From Candidatus Harrisonbacteria bacterium (GTDB lineage: Bacteria > Patescibacteriota > Minisyncoccia > UBA6257 > 02-FULL-45-10c): a DNA stretch of 64,000 bases. The stretch lies in contig JACROC010000007.1 of assembly GCA_016214655.1 (NCBI GenBank), forward strand, positions 14,785 to 78,784. Reading direction: 5' to 3'. The notes under the pieces are model-generated. The model was not told where the DNA came from. It did no database searches and was given only the letters and a program-made list of their open reading frames with translations. The translations under genes were made by a program, and so were the position numbers. This document shows, piece by piece, positions 12,929 through 28,808 of the stretch (position 1 is its first letter; every line of letters begins with the position of its first letter).

Positions 12929-12957
12929 TACTGCCGCTCCTTCAAGAGCGGATTTTT
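12929..12957 (+). terminator. conserved terminator of plus-strand cassettes
   Basis: ccgctccttcaagagcggatttttt; a near-identical copy follows the plus-strand cassette at 25659. Confidence 0.55.
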
Positions 12958-12966
12958 TATTAACAC

Positions 12967-13004
12967 AATCTGGGTGCCGTCGTGTGAGATGTTAGAACTA
13001 GATT
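12967..13004 (+). repeat. cassette-junction repeat, variant 1 (tRNA-His 3'-end-like)
   Basis: aatctgggtgccgtcgtgtgagatgttagaactagatt. Confidence 0.7.
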
Positions 13005-13228
13005 GATTAGCTTATAAAAGAAAAGTCGCCTGGAACAGGCGACTTATTAAATCAACTTAGTTTGTTAAGAGCCGAGAAGCTGAAAATTAAGAGATGAATA
13101 TATTATTTCAAAATTTATGTTCTGTCAAAATTTAGCCCCGCACTAGAAAAATTTACGAATTTGCTAAAAGCAAACATCTCAGCTAATATATAAACAGCTT
13201 TTTACCAAAAGATTCTGGCAAAAGAGAA

Positions 13229-13549
13229 ATGGAAATACTGATCTTGCTCCTTGGGCCGGCTATTGCCGCGGGATTCATTGAGGGAAATTTAAAAGGTTTT
13301 AAATTCGGTGCAATAACCGCAATTACTACCCTAATTATTAGTTTTATATCGGCAATGAATTCTTTTGGATTAGATGGTATGCGTGGCAAAGCACAAGCAA
13401 TGAAAGATATGGTCTTGGGTTGGATTTTCATTTTTTCTATCTACGGAGCAATTATGTTTTTAATTTTCGGTTTTCCGGGGTTACATCCGGTTTTAGTTTC
13501 TTTTATTGCCCTGATTGCTACTGTCGCTGTCGCTCTGATTATTTTATAA
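13229..13549 (+). CDS. small membrane protein
   Basis: 106 aa, three hydrophobic helices; terminator ccgctcatccaagggcgggttttt follows. Confidence 0.45.
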   Translation: MEILILLLGPAIAAGFIEGNLKGFKFGAITAITTLIISFISAMNSFGLDGMRGKAQAMKDMVLGWIFIFSIYGAIMFLIFGFPGLHPVLVSFIALIATVAVALIIL

Positions 13550-13809
13550 ATCTATTGATATAAATATCCCGTTCTATACACTCCGCTCATCCAAGGGCGG
13601 GTTTTTAATTAAATGATTTCCCCCTTAGTTACTGGATCAATCTGAAGCAATCTCACTTCTTTAAACTTATTTAAATCTTCCCGACAAGGCAACCAGCCCC
13701 TAACAATAAAATCATCTTCATAAATCGGCTTCCATATAGCAAAATATTTAAAATTGTTAATCGTTAATAAAAAAAGACTGCCCCAGCTTTCGCTTGGGCA
13801 GTAATAATA

Positions 13810-14286
13810 TTACTTTTGATATTTACTTATATCCGCTCCCAGATTCATTGGACCAAACGCGAGAGGCAGCAACTCCTCCATTGCAGCAACGATGATCTTA
13901 TCCTTTTTAGTGGTAGACATAACCATTTCCAAATCATATTCGGATAGCTGAGCCACTTCATAAAGCATTTGCCTGCAGCTTCCACACGGACCCGTCACTT
14001 CAGTAGTATTGAAATTCTCACCGCGACCAATAATTGCGACTCCTCTGAAAATCCTGATGCCCATTGCATTCGCGCGCAAGATAGCAGCCCGCTCTGCGCA
14101 AATAGTTGAACCATAAGCTGAGTTTTCAACATTAGCTCCGCCAATCAATCGGCCATCGACTGAAATAAGACAAGCTCCAACATAAAAATGAGAATAAGGA
14201 TTATAAGCGTTTTCCATGACTCGCGCTGCTTCATCTAAAGCCTGACGCTGTAAATCAGTCAAATCCACATATTTTACCTCTTTCAT
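13810..14286 (-). CDS. cdd: cytidine deaminase
   Basis: CAERAAI and PCGSCRQ zinc-binding motifs; start placed at MKEVKY with aaaaggagag RBS. Confidence 0.7.
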   Translation of the reverse strand: MKEVKYVDLTDLQRQALDEAARVMENAYNPYSHFYVGACLISVDGRLIGGANVENSAYGSTICAERAAILRANAMGIRIFRGVAIIGRGENFNTTEVTGPCGSCRQMLYEVAQLSEYDLEMVMSTTKKDKIIVAAMEELLPLAFGPMNLGADISKYQK

Positions 14287-14345
14287 GTCGCTCTCCTTTT
14301 GAAAAACTAGAAATAAACTATCAAAAATTTTTAATAAAGTCAATT

Positions 14346-14384
14346 TATCTAGGTGCCGTTATAAAGGATGTTTAGAACTAATTT
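14346..14384 (+). repeat. cassette-junction repeat, variant 1 (diverged)
   Basis: atctaggtgccgttataaaggatgtttagaactaattt. Confidence 0.55.
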
Positions 14385-14420
14385 GATTTAAAAAAAAGCA
14401 GCATTTCTGCTGCATCAAAT

Positions 14421-14648
14421 TTAATCTCCGGTAACTGATAAATAATCTTCGGGCGTTTTTTCCCATTTTGGTAAGAAAATCCAGAGTATTATATAAAGCA
14501 CTGCCATTTCCGATCCAGTAACCATATAAGTAATAAACCAGACCAATCTCACTATCCAGGTGGGGAAACCCATCCAATAGGCAACTCCGGCACAAACTCC
14601 GCTAAACCAAGAATATCTGGAATCAGTCACCTTTCTTAATTTACGCAT
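14421..14648 (-). CDS. PspC-domain membrane protein
   Basis: RYSWFSGVCAGVAYWMGFPTWIVRLVW matches the PspC domain signature. Confidence 0.6.
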   Translation of the reverse strand: MRKLRKVTDSRYSWFSGVCAGVAYWMGFPTWIVRLVWFITYMVTGSEMAVLYIILWIFLPKWEKTPEDYLSVTGD

Positions 14649-14715
14649 TCTACCGTCTCCTTTTCAACGAACGTTAACTACTGATGAATATCTTATTTCA
14701 AAATTCATATTTTGT
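14649..14715 (-). promoter_or_regulatory. conserved cassette promoter and 5'-UTR module
   Basis: minus strand: TTGACAaaatatgaattttgaaaTAAGATattcatcagtagttaacgttcgttgaaaaggagacggtagaATG. Confidence 0.65.
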
Positions 14716-14721
14716 CAAATA

Positions 14722-14760
14722 AATCTGGGTGCCGCCACGTGAGATGTTTAGAACTAGATT
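14722..14760 (+). repeat. cassette-junction repeat, variant 1
   Basis: aaatctgggtgccgccacgtgagatgtttagaactagatt. Confidence 0.7.
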
Positions 14761-26690: not shown

Positions 26691-26728
26691 AAATCTGGAC
26701 GCCATCGTGTGGGATGTTAGAACTAGAT
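26691..26728 (+). repeat. cassette-junction repeat, variant 1
   Basis: aatctggacgccatcgtgtgggatgttagaactagatt. Confidence 0.7.
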
Positions 26729-27146
26729 TAAGCAAAGTTACCCAACCCTGCTACTCACCGTATTTCTTGAAAAGAAAACGCCGCCATTACTTTGGCGGCT
26801 GAATTATTAATGCATGAATTCAAGTTTTGTCTCGAGAAGAGCCTTTTCCCAACGGTCAGCACTTTTAACTGCGCGTTCACGAGACCTCCCATACTTTATT
26901 AAAGTCTGAATAATTTGTTTGCGATATTTTCGAATTTCTGCCGGACTCAAATCAAGCGGGTCTTTTACCATCATTACCGTCATTCGACTTCTCGCTATAT
27001 CCTAAAGTAACTAACGCTGATTATAACAACAAGATTTAAAAATGCAAGATAAATAATATTGAGTTCAATGATATTTTTCATATCAAAAGTATATCGAGTT
27101 AGAACCAAATTGTCTTTGATTTATATAGATATTTCATTAGAATTTT

Positions 27147-27185
27147 ACGCTGGGTGCCATCGGAGAGGATGCTTGAACCAAATTA
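27147..27185 (+). repeat. cassette-junction repeat, variant 1 (diverged)
   Basis: acgctgggtgccatcggagaggatgcttgaaccaaatt. Confidence 0.5.
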
Positions 27186-27266
27186 AGCACAAATTCAGTT
27201 ACCCCACCCCCACGATACGCCTTTTTAATAAAAAGATAGTTCGAATTGCTGAGATATTTCTTGAAC

Positions 27267-28022
27267 TTATTTATTTTTCCAAACTTCCTTCAGAACTCGG
27301 TCTGCTAACACATGCGCATCTTCTCTAATTTGACCCGTCCTTTCCTGATTTACAGAATCAGGCCTTTCCGCGTGGGCAGATAAGTGTTGTCCTCTAGATT
27401 TTTTTTGCACACCACTTAAATCACTATCATTATATAAAAAAGGTACACTAGCGTTCTCGCTACCAATAAATAATCCACGCCTTCCCAAAATTGACGGAAG
27501 AAAATAGCCTCCTCCCTGATAACTTCGTTTGGAACTATGCGACGCGATCGAAGCTATATCAAACGGGATATGCTCTTGCTCCAAAATTTCCGCTAATTGT
27601 TCCATACTCGCGCCAGTAGCCATGAATTCTGTGACAATCAACGCCTTTTTCTTGATTTCCGACTTTATTTTCCTGAAAAAGGCAATGAGCTGCTCTTTAT
27701 TAGCATTATGTCTTCCGCTCGCAATAAAACGAGTCTTTAAAAGATTTCTATCTTCTTCGGAAGTAAGATCAGGATGTAATACCCTCATTCTGCTGCTAAT
27801 GATATCTTTCATTACCAACGTCGGAATTCTACCGCTTGCGTCATCGCCAATCAGCATATCGTATTCTCCAGCGTCGATCGTTTCTTTTAACTGCTCTATT
27901 AGCCTACTCGTCGGATACTCTAACTCCTCCATAATACCCCCGAAATGATACTGCAAATCTTTCTCTTGTGTGTTAATAGGCTTTTCTTTGCCCTCTTCAG
28001 AAATTTTTTCAAATGTTTCCAT
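27267..28022 (-). CDS. hypothetical protein with PRTase-like segment
   Basis: ALIVTEFMATGASM resembles the type I phosphoribosyltransferase PRPP-binding motif; otherwise unassigned. Confidence 0.4.
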   Translation of the reverse strand: METFEKISEEGKEKPINTQEKDLQYHFGGIMEELEYPTSRLIEQLKETIDAGEYDMLIGDDASGRIPTLVMKDIISSRMRVLHPDLTSEEDRNLLKTRFIASGRHNANKEQLIAFFRKIKSEIKKKALIVTEFMATGASMEQLAEILEQEHIPFDIASIASHSSKRSYQGGGYFLPSILGRRGLFIGSENASVPFLYNDSDLSGVQKKSRGQHLSAHAERPDSVNQERTGQIREDAHVLADRVLKEVWKNK

Positions 28023-28102
28023 AATTATTATAATAAATCATTTGTCCGATATTGCAATAAATAATAGTAACTCATGAATTCAAAATTAATAAAAAAATAA
28101 AG

Positions 28103-28138
28103 TTGGTTGGGTTGACAACCGGAGCAGATTAGAACTTG
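28103..28138 (+). repeat. cassette-junction repeat, variant 2 (diverged)
   Basis: ttggttgggttgacaaccggagcagattagaacttg. Confidence 0.45.
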
Positions 28139-28165
28139 TTTTATAAATTAAAAAGCGGCTTGATA

Positions 28166-28636
28166 TTATCGCACCGCAAGAGGAATATCGAATCGAAAAT
28201 ATTCGATATTAGTATCTTCTTTAGTTATAAGAACACGAACCGTAGCTTTATCGGAAGAAATTTTCCGTGGCACCACATCTGGCCAACCAATACCACTGCT
28301 TTTACTCCAATAACGTTCAATGTATCGAGAACTAACAACTACTTCTTTATCCGAACTGTCTCTTTCTACAAACTGCACTACTAACCTGCATTTTTTCTCG
28401 TTTTTACTCGTACAAGGATTTCCTTTCTCTGAAAAGAGTTGAAAATCAATGGTGAGATAAAATTCGTTTCCTCGCTCAACATAATAATCTTTTAATTCAT
28501 GAATAAGATGAATTGGAGTACCTCCTAAGATGTAGAAATAGCCATCAGTCATTTTAAAGGTTGGACTCGAAACCGTTCCCGCAGAAACAAAACTCGAAAG
28601 TAATAATGCAATGCAGCTCAAAAATAACTTCTTCAT
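28166..28636 (-). CDS. secreted/lipoprotein-like hypothetical protein
   Basis: real start MKKLFLSCIALLLSS (signal peptide); the longer track ORF starts at a TTG inside the leader. Confidence 0.5.
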   Translation of the reverse strand: MKKLFLSCIALLLSSFVSAGTVSSPTFKMTDGYFYILGGTPIHLIHELKDYYVERGNEFYLTIDFQLFSEKGNPCTSKNEKKCRLVVQFVERDSSDKEVVVSSRYIERYWSKSSGIGWPDVVPRKISSDKATVRVLITKEDTNIEYFRFDIPLAVR

Positions 28637-28657
28637 CCTCGTCACCTTCCTTTTCAA

Positions 28658-28712
28658 TGAACGTCAACTGCTGAAAATATATTACAAGAAAATATAAATA
28701 AGGTCAAACTAA
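28658..28712 (-). promoter_or_regulatory. conserved cassette promoter and 5'-UTR module
   Basis: minus: TTGACCttatttatattttcttgTAATATattttcagcagttgacgttcattgaaaaggaagg. Confidence 0.6.
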
Positions 28713-28746
28713 TCTGGGTGCCATCGTGTGGGATGTTAGAACTTGT
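28711..28746 (+). repeat. cassette-junction repeat, variant 1
   Basis: aatctgggtgccatcgtgtgggatgttagaacttg followed by ttataaaagaaaaaaccgc terminator flank. Confidence 0.7.
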
Positions 28747-28808
28747 TTGGTTAGTTTATAAAAGAAAAAACCGCTCAAATTTGATAGCGGTTTCTAATTT
28801 CATAAATT

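Follow-up and report, generated by a model that had tools for sequence, protein, structure and literature searches.

Co-oriented repeats between small gene cassettes at a tRNA-His gene in Patescibacteria, most likely split-off tails of a large serine recombinase gene

The DNA analysed here (the window) is a 64-kb stretch from a Candidatus Harrisonbacteria MAG. Between ~9300 on the left and the tRNA-His gene at 30321 on the right, it holds an array of small cassettes divided by a short repeat, of which ~21 copies lie within 9.3-29.7 kb, all on the + strand (Table 1). The tally of 21 leaves the tRNA-His end apart and includes degenerate copies and a third variant (v3) beside v1 and v2. The coordinates given in the preliminary description of this DNA were narrower than the array at both ends, and the tRNA-His anchor, its key feature, was missed there.

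In a mismatch scan of the 64 kb with 27-nt cores of v1 (GGGTGCCATCGTGTGGGATGTTAGAAC) and v2 (GGGTCGGCAACTGGAGCAGATTAGAAC), matches were confined to 9.3-28.7 kb of the + strand, and the minus strand of the entire window had none at ≤9 mismatches. The two-sided binomial probability of finding 21/21 copies on one strand is 1e-6. The 8-mer AATCTGGG occurs 11 times in the window versus 2.6 expected; its two minus-strand occurrences (13838 and 21619) both fall within ORFs, with no further repeat sequence around them. The fixed + strand orientation claimed earlier is thus upheld, and all five + strand cassette ORFs listed with it (12771, 13229, 24264, 25433, and 25842) exist. The genes to the left and right of the repeats are oriented -/- in 12 cases, -/+ in four, +/+ in two, and +/- in three, so that repeat orientation is independent of the cargo.

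Table 1. Features of the cassette array, listed from the tRNA end outward, followed by representative transcription signals
Feature	Coordinates	Strand	Remarks
tRNA-His(GTG) gene + 5 downstream bases	30316..30392 (gene 30321-30392)	-	array anchor, attB side
v3 repeat	29641..29690	+	GGGTCGTCTAGT...; copy closest to tRNA
v1 repeat	28711..28772	+	consensus copy; TTATAAAAGAAAAAACC flank, then terminator hairpin
v2 repeat	28104..28150	+	
v1 repeat	27146..27230	+	with ACCCCACCCC..CGA box
v1 repeat	26691..26790	+	with box and terminator flank
v1 repeat	25690..25805	+	longest match to CPR element (nhmmer E 3e-11); immediately 3' of + strand terminator
v2 repeat	24973..25035	+	with terminator flank
v2 repeat	24579..24655	+	GC-rich insertion
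v1 repeat	24095..24208	+	GC hairpin inserted ahead of TTAGAAC; with box
v1 repeat	21244..21307	+	with terminator flank
v2 repeat	20567..20651	+	with insertion; CPR-wide leader motif in front (20509-20566)
v3 repeat	19822..19903	+	retains long recombinase-tail sequence (AGAACTGTGTTGGGAGGAACGATGCGACGATTTATATTCC), frameshifted
v1 repeat	18600..18640	+	
v2 repeat	16901..16965	+	with terminator flank
v1 repeat	14722..14815	+	with box; upstream of + strand gene 14872-15618
v1 repeat	14344..14397	+	degenerate; with terminator
v1 repeat	12967..13028	+	with flank; immediately 3' of + strand terminator
v2 repeat	12662..12693	+	degenerate
v2 repeat	11145..11219	+	degenerate; with flank
v1-like copy	10296..10365	+	degenerate (..GTCGTCGTAGAAGATGCCGGGACTTATTTGG)
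v2 repeat	9297..9389	+	most distal; with insertion and flank
+ strand cassette terminator	12934..12951	+	near-identical twin at 25658-25676
Cassette promoter TTGACC-17-TAATAT + conserved 5'UTR	28645..28710	-	AGCAGTTGACGTTCATTGAAAAGGAAG; touches left repeat edge; example

A flank composed of TTATAAAAGAAAAA(A)CC and a hairpin was found at all seven positions claimed earlier (12967, 21244, 28711, 11147, 16901, 24978, and 26691) and additionally at 9302, 14349, and 20572. In the window, this flank is the terminator of the next cassette: minus-strand terminator-like sites were called at 13045-13023, 21323-21306, 16978-16960, 25048-25033, and 26799-26780, and the window contains 42 terminator-like sites versus 17.4 ± 4.5 in shuffles. 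The earlier interpretation of the flank as a terminator is therefore valid for the window but does not extend to relatives, where the core is followed on its right not by a terminator flank but by ~70 nt that encode protein and represent the recombinase tail. Both of the near-identical + strand terminators described before were called. Nine more copies of the cassette promoter and 5'UTR are located at 10238, 11080, 14654, 18540, 21764, 22385, 24029, 25306, and 30253.

With regard to the dyads, the CATC-n6-GATG dyad is indeed present in the v1 copies of the window, but no conserved palindrome was detected. Among 61 distinct copies, no covariation was observed because the right arm is invariant and 39 of them have G.T as the second pair. 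An RNA structure is not supported, and no conserved RNA fold was found on either strand.

Read on the + strand, the tRNA-His 3' end with its four flanking bases (GATT) gives AATCTGGGTGCC, which matches the v1 repeat exactly over its first 12 nt and falls where the next repeat would be expected. Past these 8-12 nt, the core is no more similar to tRNA-His than to other tRNAs. Every copy is oriented as the tRNA's own 3' end, and the array begins at the tRNA. A core-pattern scan of GTDB species genomes returned 62 loci, ~50 of them from Patescibacteria. Orientation was counted over 54 fetched loci with element matches, including the window and later-fetched loci; tRNA-His is present in 22 of these (the window and 21 others, nearly all labelled Patescibacteria or unclassified), and all 38 of the 38 copies there lie on the 3' side of the tRNA and on the opposite strand. 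Throughout the phylum, the element keeps precisely this geometry. Copies in the opposite orientation were sought and found neither in the 64-kb window nor in the multi-copy loci, 21/21 of which are co-oriented. In one locus (L039), 16 nt of the host tRNA-His end recur as a genuine partial copy.

Related genomes differ about ten-fold in the cassettes present between the tRNA and a gene that they share. Two cassettes separate tRNA-His from the Bax1-I gene in L065, and ~20 lie between the same two genes in the window, the Bax1-I genes being 82.5% identical at the nucleotide level. The same NYN cassette has the element on its flanks in the window, L015, and L029, i.e., in three genomes.

The long form of the element is a protein-coding sequence under purifying selection. 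Its entropy at codon positions 1/2/3 is 0.65/0.60/1.23 (permutation p = 0.0013), and the share of synonymous codon differences is 44% in one frame versus 6-10% in four other frames. The reverse frame sharing third positions reaches 32% but contains 34 stops, compared with 0 in the coding frame. A start codon is present in only ~half of the element copies.

The gene to which this sequence would belong encodes a large serine recombinase (LSR). In L076, an ORF (1923-2963) with Resolvase, Recombinase, and Zn_ribbon_recom domains runs on as P0161 into tRNA-His, and P0162 adjoins tRNA-His at the same junction in L077. In L072, the reading frame of a decayed zinc ribbon and C-terminal region leads via ...GAGAGCATGTCGCG/TGGGGTGCCGTCGTGGAGG into the tail; this continuity is seen in a single locus family (L072 = L073 = L074) with a decayed LSR. 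The LSR gene thus ends at the repeat's junction sequence, with antisense tRNA-His next in L076 and L077 and the element in frame in L072. No intact LSR of >300 aa with the tail was among the best 150 of 242 HMMER matches in 1.84 billion representatives, and a search of IMG/VR returned no relative. No recombinase was found in the window, 130 ORFs from other loci yielded none recurring within 3 kb of the element, and no tyrosine recombinase was seen in any locus examined. The earlier view of the repeats as recombination sites rather than transcription signals is borne out by the tRNA-His anchor in the window and 21 other loci, the great differences in cassette number between related genomes, the NYN cassette flanked in three genomes, and the LSR gene adjoining the junction sequence.

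The repeats mark the joints between small cassettes inserted successively at the tRNA-His end, and each was most likely split off as the tail of the serine recombinase gene responsible for the insertion. They are probably attR-type scars of a family of Patescibacteria integrative elements that target the tRNA-His 3' end and carry attP in the 3' end of the LSR gene, a layout of cassette joints so far undescribed in bacteria. Briefly, attP would share with the target a common core, TGGGGTG(C/G)C, antisense to the tRNA-His acceptor end. Integration would split the LSR gene, leaving the recombinase body beside the tRNA with its last ~30 codons exchanged for ~10 antisense-tRNA codons and depositing the authentic tail and an attP half-site at the far end of the island. 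Later insertions beside the tRNA would shift earlier tails outward, the predicted outcome being co-oriented tails that divide cargo blocks whatever the cargo orientation. L072 matches this arrangement, with a tail (1926), 8 kb of cargo, and an LSR ending at 10360, beyond which three further co-oriented tails surround small cassettes without an LSR.

In the window, the tails appear to have been cut to ~14 codons and joined to the next cassette's terminator, and the recombinase to have been lost. These tails are short and diverged; v1, v2, and v3 may represent diverged recombinase lineages retaining G-x-x-(V/L)-x-(D/Q/N)-(V/I/A)-R-T, a residue pattern that is the only tie of v2 and v3 to the LSR. 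The ~1-kb single-gene cassettes, with a near-identical promoter and 5'UTR at the other end, are presumably non-autonomous units since no recombinase remains, and the array would thus be either a fossil or dependent on a recombinase encoded at another site of the genome that mobilises it in trans. LSRs normally recombine attP with attB only, and repeated insertion beside a hybrid site therefore needs explaining.

Several other readings share part of this evidence. The same scar could be the work of another engine, either a tyrosine recombinase (Xer-like or P4-like) or unequal crossing-over between ~125-nt intergenic modules that expanded the window array from one or few scars, the LSR adjacency in L072, L076, and L077 then being the story of one lineage. 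It would suit this view that a recombinase neither occurs in the window nor recurs near the copies, and that the core has an arm/6-nt variable spacer/arm layout with the CATC/GATG dyad; its right arm ATGTTAGAAC may resemble the XerD arm of dif. Identity between promoter-UTR modules reaches 93% across 83 nt, which is sufficient for homologous exchange. Another engine is nevertheless unlikely: the LSR ends precisely at the tRNA-His end in two independent loci and at the element in one, the coding constraint makes sense only as part of a gene spanning the core, and no locus examined showed a tyrosine recombinase. A chromosomal integron or CALIN, in which IntI recombines attC sites in their folded single-stranded form, is hardly credible, even though co-oriented repeats separate cassettes that mostly carry one gene and vary in function, the array resembles CALINs in having no integrase next to it (PMC4889954), and GTTAGAA fits 6/7 positions of the R' consensus GTTRRRY. 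The core does not fold (single-strand DNA energies within ~1-2 sd of shuffles, terminator hairpin excluded), the R''/L''/L'/R' inverted-repeat architecture is absent with no RYYYAAC partner, and the cassettes have their own promoters and terminators. No tyrosine recombinase is present, and the anchor is a tRNA; the array is not a member of the integrons.

The coding constraint would also be expected of a free-standing micro-gene carried by each cassette, encoding a ~31-33 aa peptide (e.g., addiction or regulatory) and taking no part in recombination. Minisyncoccus and others do have complete ORFs that are 31-33 aa long and begin with ATG or GTG, and 242 clusters of short ORFs were found. However, the copies lacking a start codon have W, R, Q, or E instead, no consistent ribosome-binding site was seen, conservation begins abruptly at the base matching the tRNA end, the L072 ORF runs from the LSR into the element, and there were zero matches in Pfam, NCBIfam, PADLOC, and PDB, which makes a micro-gene very unlikely. 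A transcription module, i.e., a bidirectional promoter/terminator spacer or an activator site upstream of -35 copied with gene duplications, would fit the position of the repeat between the -35 of a strong consensus minus-strand promoter and the terminator of the next gene, as well as the ACCCCACCCC..TTGA box ahead of + strand genes. This reading is already contradicted and highly improbable: neighbouring-gene orientation has no bearing on repeat orientation, the copies at 12967 and 25690 follow + strand terminators and have no promoter to act on, the repeat is missing from two junctions (21831 and 22452) that do have a promoter and a terminator, and both the phylum-wide tRNA-His anchor and the coding constraint speak against it.

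The proposed insertion of split LSR genes at tRNA-His has partial counterparts among known systems. Staphylococcal SCC elements (SCCmec; CcrAB LSRs) insert at the 3' end of the conserved gene rlmH/orfX, hold the end of this target in direct repeats, and form tandem or composite arrays that include pseudo-SCC units without their own recombinase. The Patescibacteria element would resemble them in LSR insertion at a gene 3' end, direct repeats, arrays, and recombinase-less units; SCC differs in its protein-gene target, attP outside the ccr genes, and units of tens of kb. Phage large serine integrases (phiC31, Bxb1, and A118) combine Resolvase, Recombinase, zinc ribbon, and a coiled-coil C-terminal region and use a short core common to attP and attB. 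Both this domain set and the short common core recur here, but the known phage attB sites mostly fall within protein genes or intergenic DNA, and attP lies beside the integrase ORF rather than inside it.

Serial site-specific integration is known from tycheposons and tRNA-anchored islands (Hackl et al., bioRxiv 10.1101/2020.12.28.424599), which share integration at the 3' end of a tRNA gene, an attachment motif duplicated as a partial tRNA, and degenerate remnants with scattered partial tRNAs and cargo-only stretches. Unlike in tycheposons, the window repeat shares only 8-12 nt with the tRNA, the remainder probably being the recombinase's coding tail; the units, of 0.3-3.5 kb and about one gene, are far smaller and occur in larger numbers (21 in 21 kb), and the linked enzyme is an LSR, the host Patescibacteria, and the target tRNA-His. 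A recombination site inside the integrase's own gene is also found in the SSV-type 'suicidal' integrases, which are exclusively archaeal tyrosine recombinases split near the 5' part (PMC8371274); the gene is therefore fragmented upon integration at the tRNA, and its fragments border captured DNA ('gene capture'). The Patescibacteria element is instead bacterial and encodes a serine recombinase, in which only the last ~30 codons would be swapped and the catalytic, recombinase, and zinc-ribbon domains would thus stay intact. Like integrons and CALINs (Cury et al., PMC4889954), the system works as a platform for gene capture: co-oriented sites lie between cassettes that mostly hold one gene and differ in function, new units presumably enter at a single anchored end, and arrays exist that have no integrase next to them. 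The window array differs from integrons and CALINs in lacking the attC hairpin, IntI, and Pc-driven promoterless cassettes and in having a tRNA anchor instead of attI.

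A run of small transcription units, with genes mostly on the minus strand, is interspersed with 21 copies of a repeat, all of which lie on the plus strand; a scan of the whole 64-kb window found no copy on the minus strand or outside the array region. The genes flanking the repeats occur in all four orientation combinations. The repeat is present in three variants, v1 (GGGTGCCATCGTGTGGGATGTTAGAAC), v2 (GGGTCGGCAACTGGAGCAGATTAGAAC) and v3 (GGGTCGTCTAGT...TAGAAC). The cassette genes are mutually unrelated, and many have no known family; among them are Bax1-I, cytochrome c7, cytidine deaminase, MFS transporter, M32 carboxypeptidase, HD, isochorismatase and NYN genes. 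A near-consensus promoter (TTGACA-17-TAAGAT or TAATAT) lies ahead of each minus-strand cassette gene, and each unit is closed by a hairpin plus T-run terminator (42 terminator-like sites observed vs 17.4 +/- 4.5 in shuffles). A conserved 5′UTR (AGCAGTTAACGTTCGTTGAAAAGGAGG) occurs in 10 copies confined to the array region, and the left flanks, AAAGTCAAAT(A)AATC plus the promoter module, are alike at all window junctions, including that of the tRNA. The preliminary description of the array, with its orientation-locked repeats, its terminator in the right-hand flank and its twin terminators on the plus strand, proved correct.

Coordinates of the features in the window and in the comparison loci (L numbers), which were fetched from other genomes and metagenome contigs
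Locus	Feature	Position	Strand
Window	Run of transcription units (array)	~9.3-30.4 kb	genes mostly minus
Window	tRNA-His at the array end	30321-30392	minus
Window	Promoter and 5′UTR module on unrelated cassette genes	10238-30319	
Window	Promoter-terminator pair	13012-13130	minus
Window	Leader copies	20509-20566, 27083-27145	
L006, L034, L039, L043, L048, L054, L059	Leader copies		
Window	Box copies	14774-14815, 24167-24208, 25770-25805, 26737-26778, 27200-27225	
Window	GC-rich insertions in the core	24118-24138, 24606-24650, 9328-9360, 11176-11190, 20598-20620	
Window	GC-rich insert between tRNA-His and tRNA-Pro	30400-31257	
Window	110-aa ORF in this insert	30545-30877	minus
Window	17-nt partial copy of tRNA-Pro 3′ end	~30982-30998 vs 31188-31204	
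Window	Group I intron match	33267-33513	
Window	ORF with weak HNH match	32785-33159	opposite to intron
Window	Annotated tRNA-Leu(taa)	34215-34299	
L039	Inverted partial copies of tRNA-His	2755-3990	
L059	Inverted partial copies of tRNA-His	~2205-2270	
L006, L060	Inverted partial copies of tRNA-His		
L072	Inverted partial copies of tRNA-His	11440-11490, 12370-12420	
L072	Tail copy	1926	
L072	Recombinase end	10360	
L075	Recombinase ORF	2239-2886	
L076	Recombinase ORF	1923-2963	
L029	Recombinase-like gene	7143-7999 (tblastn 7999 to 7418)	minus
L029	tRNA-Arg(tct)	7143-7219	

The array ends at a tRNA-His gene. Read on the plus strand, the 3′ end of this tRNA plus four bases beyond it is AATCTGGGTGCC, which is identical to the start of v1 (12 nt), and its spacing from the promoter and 5′UTR module is the same as for every other repeat copy. 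The repeats are therefore direct repeats of the tRNA end, located on its 3′ side; as in tRNA-anchored islands, such a repeat stands at the far boundary in tRNA orientation. The proposal that the whole 28-nt core, the conserved short part of the element, is a decayed 3′ half of tRNA-His was ruled out, since it aligns no better to tRNA-His than to tRNA-Leu (local alignment scores 15.9 and 15.1), and only the acceptor end is thus shared. In locus L039, 16 nt of the end of the locus's own tRNA-His recur as a true partial copy at a distance of 190 nt. The acceptor end of the host tRNA-His (TTAG(G/T)CACCCA) also recurs in partial, inverted form with a hairpin just left of many cores, matching the host's own tRNA variant; these copies may be the other half of the recombination site attP or a long palindromic terminator.

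The window belongs to a Candidatus Harrisonbacteria metagenome-assembled genome, and its cation-efflux protein is 100% identical to an NCBI entry under that name. With regard to other genomes, the exact pattern was found at 62 loci when a single genome of each GTDB species was scanned. About 50 of these loci belong to diverse lineages of Patescibacteria (Saccharibacteria, Parcubacteria/Paceibacterota, Taylor-, Adler-, Andersen- and Magasanikbacteria, as well as the cultured Minisyncoccus archaeiphilus, NZ_AP038758, with its array at 1,376,001-1,400,000), the remainder being chance matches within flavobacterial genes. The conserved stretch is longer in the relatives (75-115 nt). A profile built from their copies, tallied over all fetched loci including the window and those fetched later, matched in 54 loci; tRNA-His, the commonest tRNA of these loci, is present in 22, where 38 of 38 copies are found 0.5-17 kb from the tRNA, always on its 3′ side and on the other strand. 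In all 21 multi-copy loci the copies are co-oriented. The related metagenome contig L065 shares with the window both tRNA-His and the Bax1-I gene (82.5% nucleotide identity), but only two cassettes and one v2 repeat lie between them, whereas the window has ~19 kb with ~20 cassettes. A plus-strand cassette with an NYN domain is flanked on both sides by element copies in the window and in two other loci (L015 and L029). Both cases, the second across three genomes, represent the presence/absence polymorphism between related genomes, bounded by repeats, that characterizes islands. Together with the partial tRNA of L039, they are signatures of insertion and loss at a site and not of a fixed regulatory module. 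In IMG/VR, the core pattern gave one chance match only, and no description of such an array in Patescibacteria was found in the searchable literature.

The element itself behaves as coding sequence. Across 40 distinct long copies, considered only beyond the part fixed by the search pattern, entropy at codon positions 1, 2 and 3 is 0.65, 0.60 and 1.23 (permutation p = 0.0013). In the frame GGT GCC GTC..., 44% of codon differences are synonymous and there are zero stop codons, compared with a synonymous share of 6-10% in four other frames; the reverse frame with shared third positions reaches 32% but contains 34 stops. The encoded peptide is GAVVEDVRTVFERRNDATIYIP followed by ~8-10 variable residues, and a start codon is missing in about half of the copies. 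In the window, the tails are shortened to ~14 codons (GAIVWDVRTRLVSL, with the stop within TTTATAAAAG) and continue directly into the next terminator. As for conserved RNA structure, alifold detected none beyond a 4-bp hairpin on either strand, the inner dyad varies on one side only without compensatory changes, and Rfam at gathering thresholds returned only tRNAs, tmRNA and the group I intron for the window and 13 loci. Searches of Pfam, NCBIfam, PADLOC and PDB returned nothing for the peptide. A rhodanese identity was discarded, as it arose from the flavobacterial chance matches (GAVVLDVRT), a PDB profile search returned no rhodanese and Pfam/NCBIfam were empty, and no support was found for an AbrB/MazE-like fold.

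When the peptide profile was searched exhaustively with HMMER, 242 clusters of short ORFs were returned. One of these, P0096, is longer and carries the peptide at its end (...ELLRFLLSNSTLKDEKPKFTLKKPFLQIAKRSPLREHVAW/GAVVEEVRT..., slashes marking junctions), while its homologues P0161-P0164 share the body and have another end (...RSAW/GGQRESNPY), which is antisense tRNA. P0161 is the continuation, past one frameshift, of an ORF in L076 with Resolvase, Recombinase and Zn_ribbon_recom domains (precomputed Pfam), and this reading of a large serine recombinase (LSR) ends inside tRNA-His; L077 has the same arrangement, and an ORF of L075 has Recombinase and Zn_ribbon domains. The L072 member of this LSR family survives as a decayed remnant, confirmed by tblastn, whose zinc ribbon and C-terminal region run in frame into the element. 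The junctions of L076 with tRNA-His (gcaaaacgctctcctttcagagagcgttcagca/TGGGGTGGCCAACGGGAATCGAACCC) and of L072 with the element (gcaaaacgctctccattaagagagcatgtcgcg/TGGGGTGCCGTCGTGGAGGAAGTGAGAAC) align in DNA with the common core TGGGGTG(C/G)C. The dyad is weak, where attP and attB of an LSR measure about 40-50 bp, have imperfect dyad symmetry on either side of a central crossover dinucleotide and are recombined by the enzyme alone. The site is thus linked to an enzyme with the three domains of an LSR, as an LSR attachment site should be. It may also lie inside the integrase ORF: LSR, core and tail are in frame in L072, the one, decayed example of the unsplit form, and antisense tRNA codons replace the tail in L076 and L077.

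The integrase gene is located at the tRNA-proximal end in L076 and L077, where it abuts tRNA-His, and at a tandem junction in L072, and is absent from the window and most other loci. L072 has the arrangement expected under the mechanism proposed below: 8 kb of cargo lies between a tail copy and the recombinase end, and beyond the LSR three further co-oriented tails surround small Fic, SET and unknown cassettes without a recombinase. A long, intact ORF carrying the tail was absent from the best 150 of the 242 HMMER matches and from IMG/VR, where the LSR C-terminal profile had no match. The window contains no recombinase remnant, and PHROGs, PADLOC and PDB sequence searches for a hidden recombinase among its ORFs without a Pfam match were empty. 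In 12 loci, tblastn HSPs that apparently extended upstream of the tail were not LSR-like on inspection. The v2 tail frame reads GRQL(E/D)Q(I/V)RT, its copies show synonymous differences, and it is taken to be the tail of a second recombinase lineage. In L029, an LSR-like gene is directed at the 3′ end of a tRNA-Arg(tct), which is the same gene-into-tRNA architecture at another tRNA.

Geometry, conservation, variability and coding constraint of the element, and the recombinase at its junction, are direct observations, and the following mechanism is proposed. The attP site would lie inside the last ~30 codons of the LSR gene, the core TGGGGTG(C/G)C being common to attP and the tRNA-His end. Integration would place the recombinase body beside the tRNA with a new 10-codon tail, and the authentic tail with an attP half-site at the distal boundary, so that successive insertions would stack tails in one orientation. 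The circular form of a cassette would have its right end joined to its own tail, in the window for example as ...AAGGTCAAACTAATC/TGGGTGCC. Such tail-splitting integration would explain why conservation begins sharply on the left, why start codons are missing, why the sequence is constrained as coding, and why the orientation of the cargo plays no part. The window units would be non-autonomous cassettes, mobilised in trans or now fossil, and are thought non-autonomous because the window has no recombinase remnant and its left flanks are alike at all junctions, the tRNA's too; this is the weakest step of the model. Hybrid sites are not normally substrates of serine integrases, and serial insertion therefore requires explanation. 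Cassettes mobilised in trans would carry only attP half-sites and the standard promoter and 5′UTR, and the whole would equal an integron-like system based on a serine recombinase and a tRNA. The full reading, a phylum-wide gene-capture platform at tRNA-His of Patescibacteria, in which an LSR with attP in its own 3′ end uses the swap of ~30 residues for ~10 antisense-tRNA codons as a directionality or 'suicide' switch, of a kind otherwise reported only from tyrosine integrases of archaea, and also mobilises single-gene cassettes in trans, is tentative, and the balance of probability is somewhat against it. The self-splitting serine integrase and the trans-mobilised cassettes have a sizeable chance of being real and new.

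Among known systems, integrons and CALIN arrays are alike in function, but the array fails every structural test of membership. Instead of an attC-type single-strand hairpin (R''-L''...L'-R'), only the terminator hairpin is stable when four units are folded as ssDNA, each on both strands (z-scores -0.8 to -3.2, driven by the terminator, with no consensus fold). Of the core sites RYYYAAC/GTTRRRY, GTTAGAA matches 6/7 positions and has no inverse partner upstream; no window ORF of at least 150 aa matches Phage_integrase, as would intI, the tyrosine recombinase that stands with attI and Pc at one end of an integron proper, and every cassette brings its own consensus promoter and terminator where integron cassettes are promoterless. 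A Tn7-like end was rejected: TGTGGGCGGACAA resembles TCTGGGTCGGCAA, and a TTAAACTGAA-like motif is present, yet there is no inverted partner end and no transposase. A tRNA primer-binding site of a retroelement was likewise rejected, with no reverse transcriptase and complementarity of just 8-9 nt. SCC arrays, which are built by serine recombinases, work alike. So do the tRNA-anchored tycheposons, in which incoming elements displace older ones outward and leave partial tRNAs (bioRxiv 10.1101/2020.12.28.424599). The parallel for the self-splitting of a recombinase gene is provided by SSV-type 'suicidal' integrases, which are tyrosine recombinases found exclusively in archaea according to a 2021 review (PMC8371274). 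The present system differs from these in its serine recombinase domains and its Patescibacteria host.

Patescibacteria have tiny genomes with few recognised mobile elements. A conserved insertion site at tRNA-His would be a defined hot spot for gene gain in the phylum; the cargo at the site includes Fic toxins, NYN nucleases, transporters, peptidases, acetyltransferases and copper genes. Should the recombinase indeed split its own gene, the archaeal 'suicidal' integrases would have their first counterpart in bacteria and their first of the serine type. The enzyme would also show in nature how directionality can be controlled by exchange of a tail and, with its known attB (the tRNA end), would offer a compact integrase for site-specific genetic work in a tool-poor phylum. 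In practice, the arrays break assemblies and are usable to delimit accessory DNA in metagenome-assembled genomes.

Several further signals accompany the cassettes. The promoter and 5′UTR module is up to 93% identical over 83 nt on unrelated cassette genes and is also present in four metagenome contigs of related organisms (L064-L067). At one place in the window, a consensus cassette promoter (TTGACA-17-TAATAT) is followed ~60 nt on by a terminator with no ORF between; the pair represents an emptied cassette or else a small RNA. A leader, CAT/ATCAAAAGTCTATCAGGTTAGAACTGAAAA..N40..AACGATGGGTGCC, without Shine-Dalgarno sequence, precedes minus-strand cassette genes, is conserved across Patescibacteria and carries GTTAGAACTG of the core again in direct orientation, ~75 nt away; the leader is a candidate for a second binding site of the recombinase or for an expression signal. 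The box (T)TACCCCACCCC.CGACTCACTA.ATTTCTTGA encodes FYPTPELTI plus a stop in the tail frame of relatives, stands ahead of plus-strand genes in the window, and looks like a T7-type promoter (CGACTCACTATA), as a candidate only. GC-rich, hairpin-like insertions are always found at one position in the core, with (G/A)TTA on one side and GAAC on the other, which points to a variable loop or to a small, secondary hot spot of insertion.

To the right of the array, tRNA-His and tRNA-Pro are separated by a GC-rich insert. This insert contains an ORF without family match and is bounded by a partial copy of the tRNA-Pro 3′ end; in a distant relative (L069/L070), a 31-nt direct repeat of its own tRNA-Pro end and a GC-rich ORF are found in the same place. 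The insert looks like a second, separate small integrative element. Farther on, a group I intron match (Rfam, 92 bits) is located outside the annotated tRNA-Leu(taa) and is adjoined on the other strand by an ORF with a weak HNH match.
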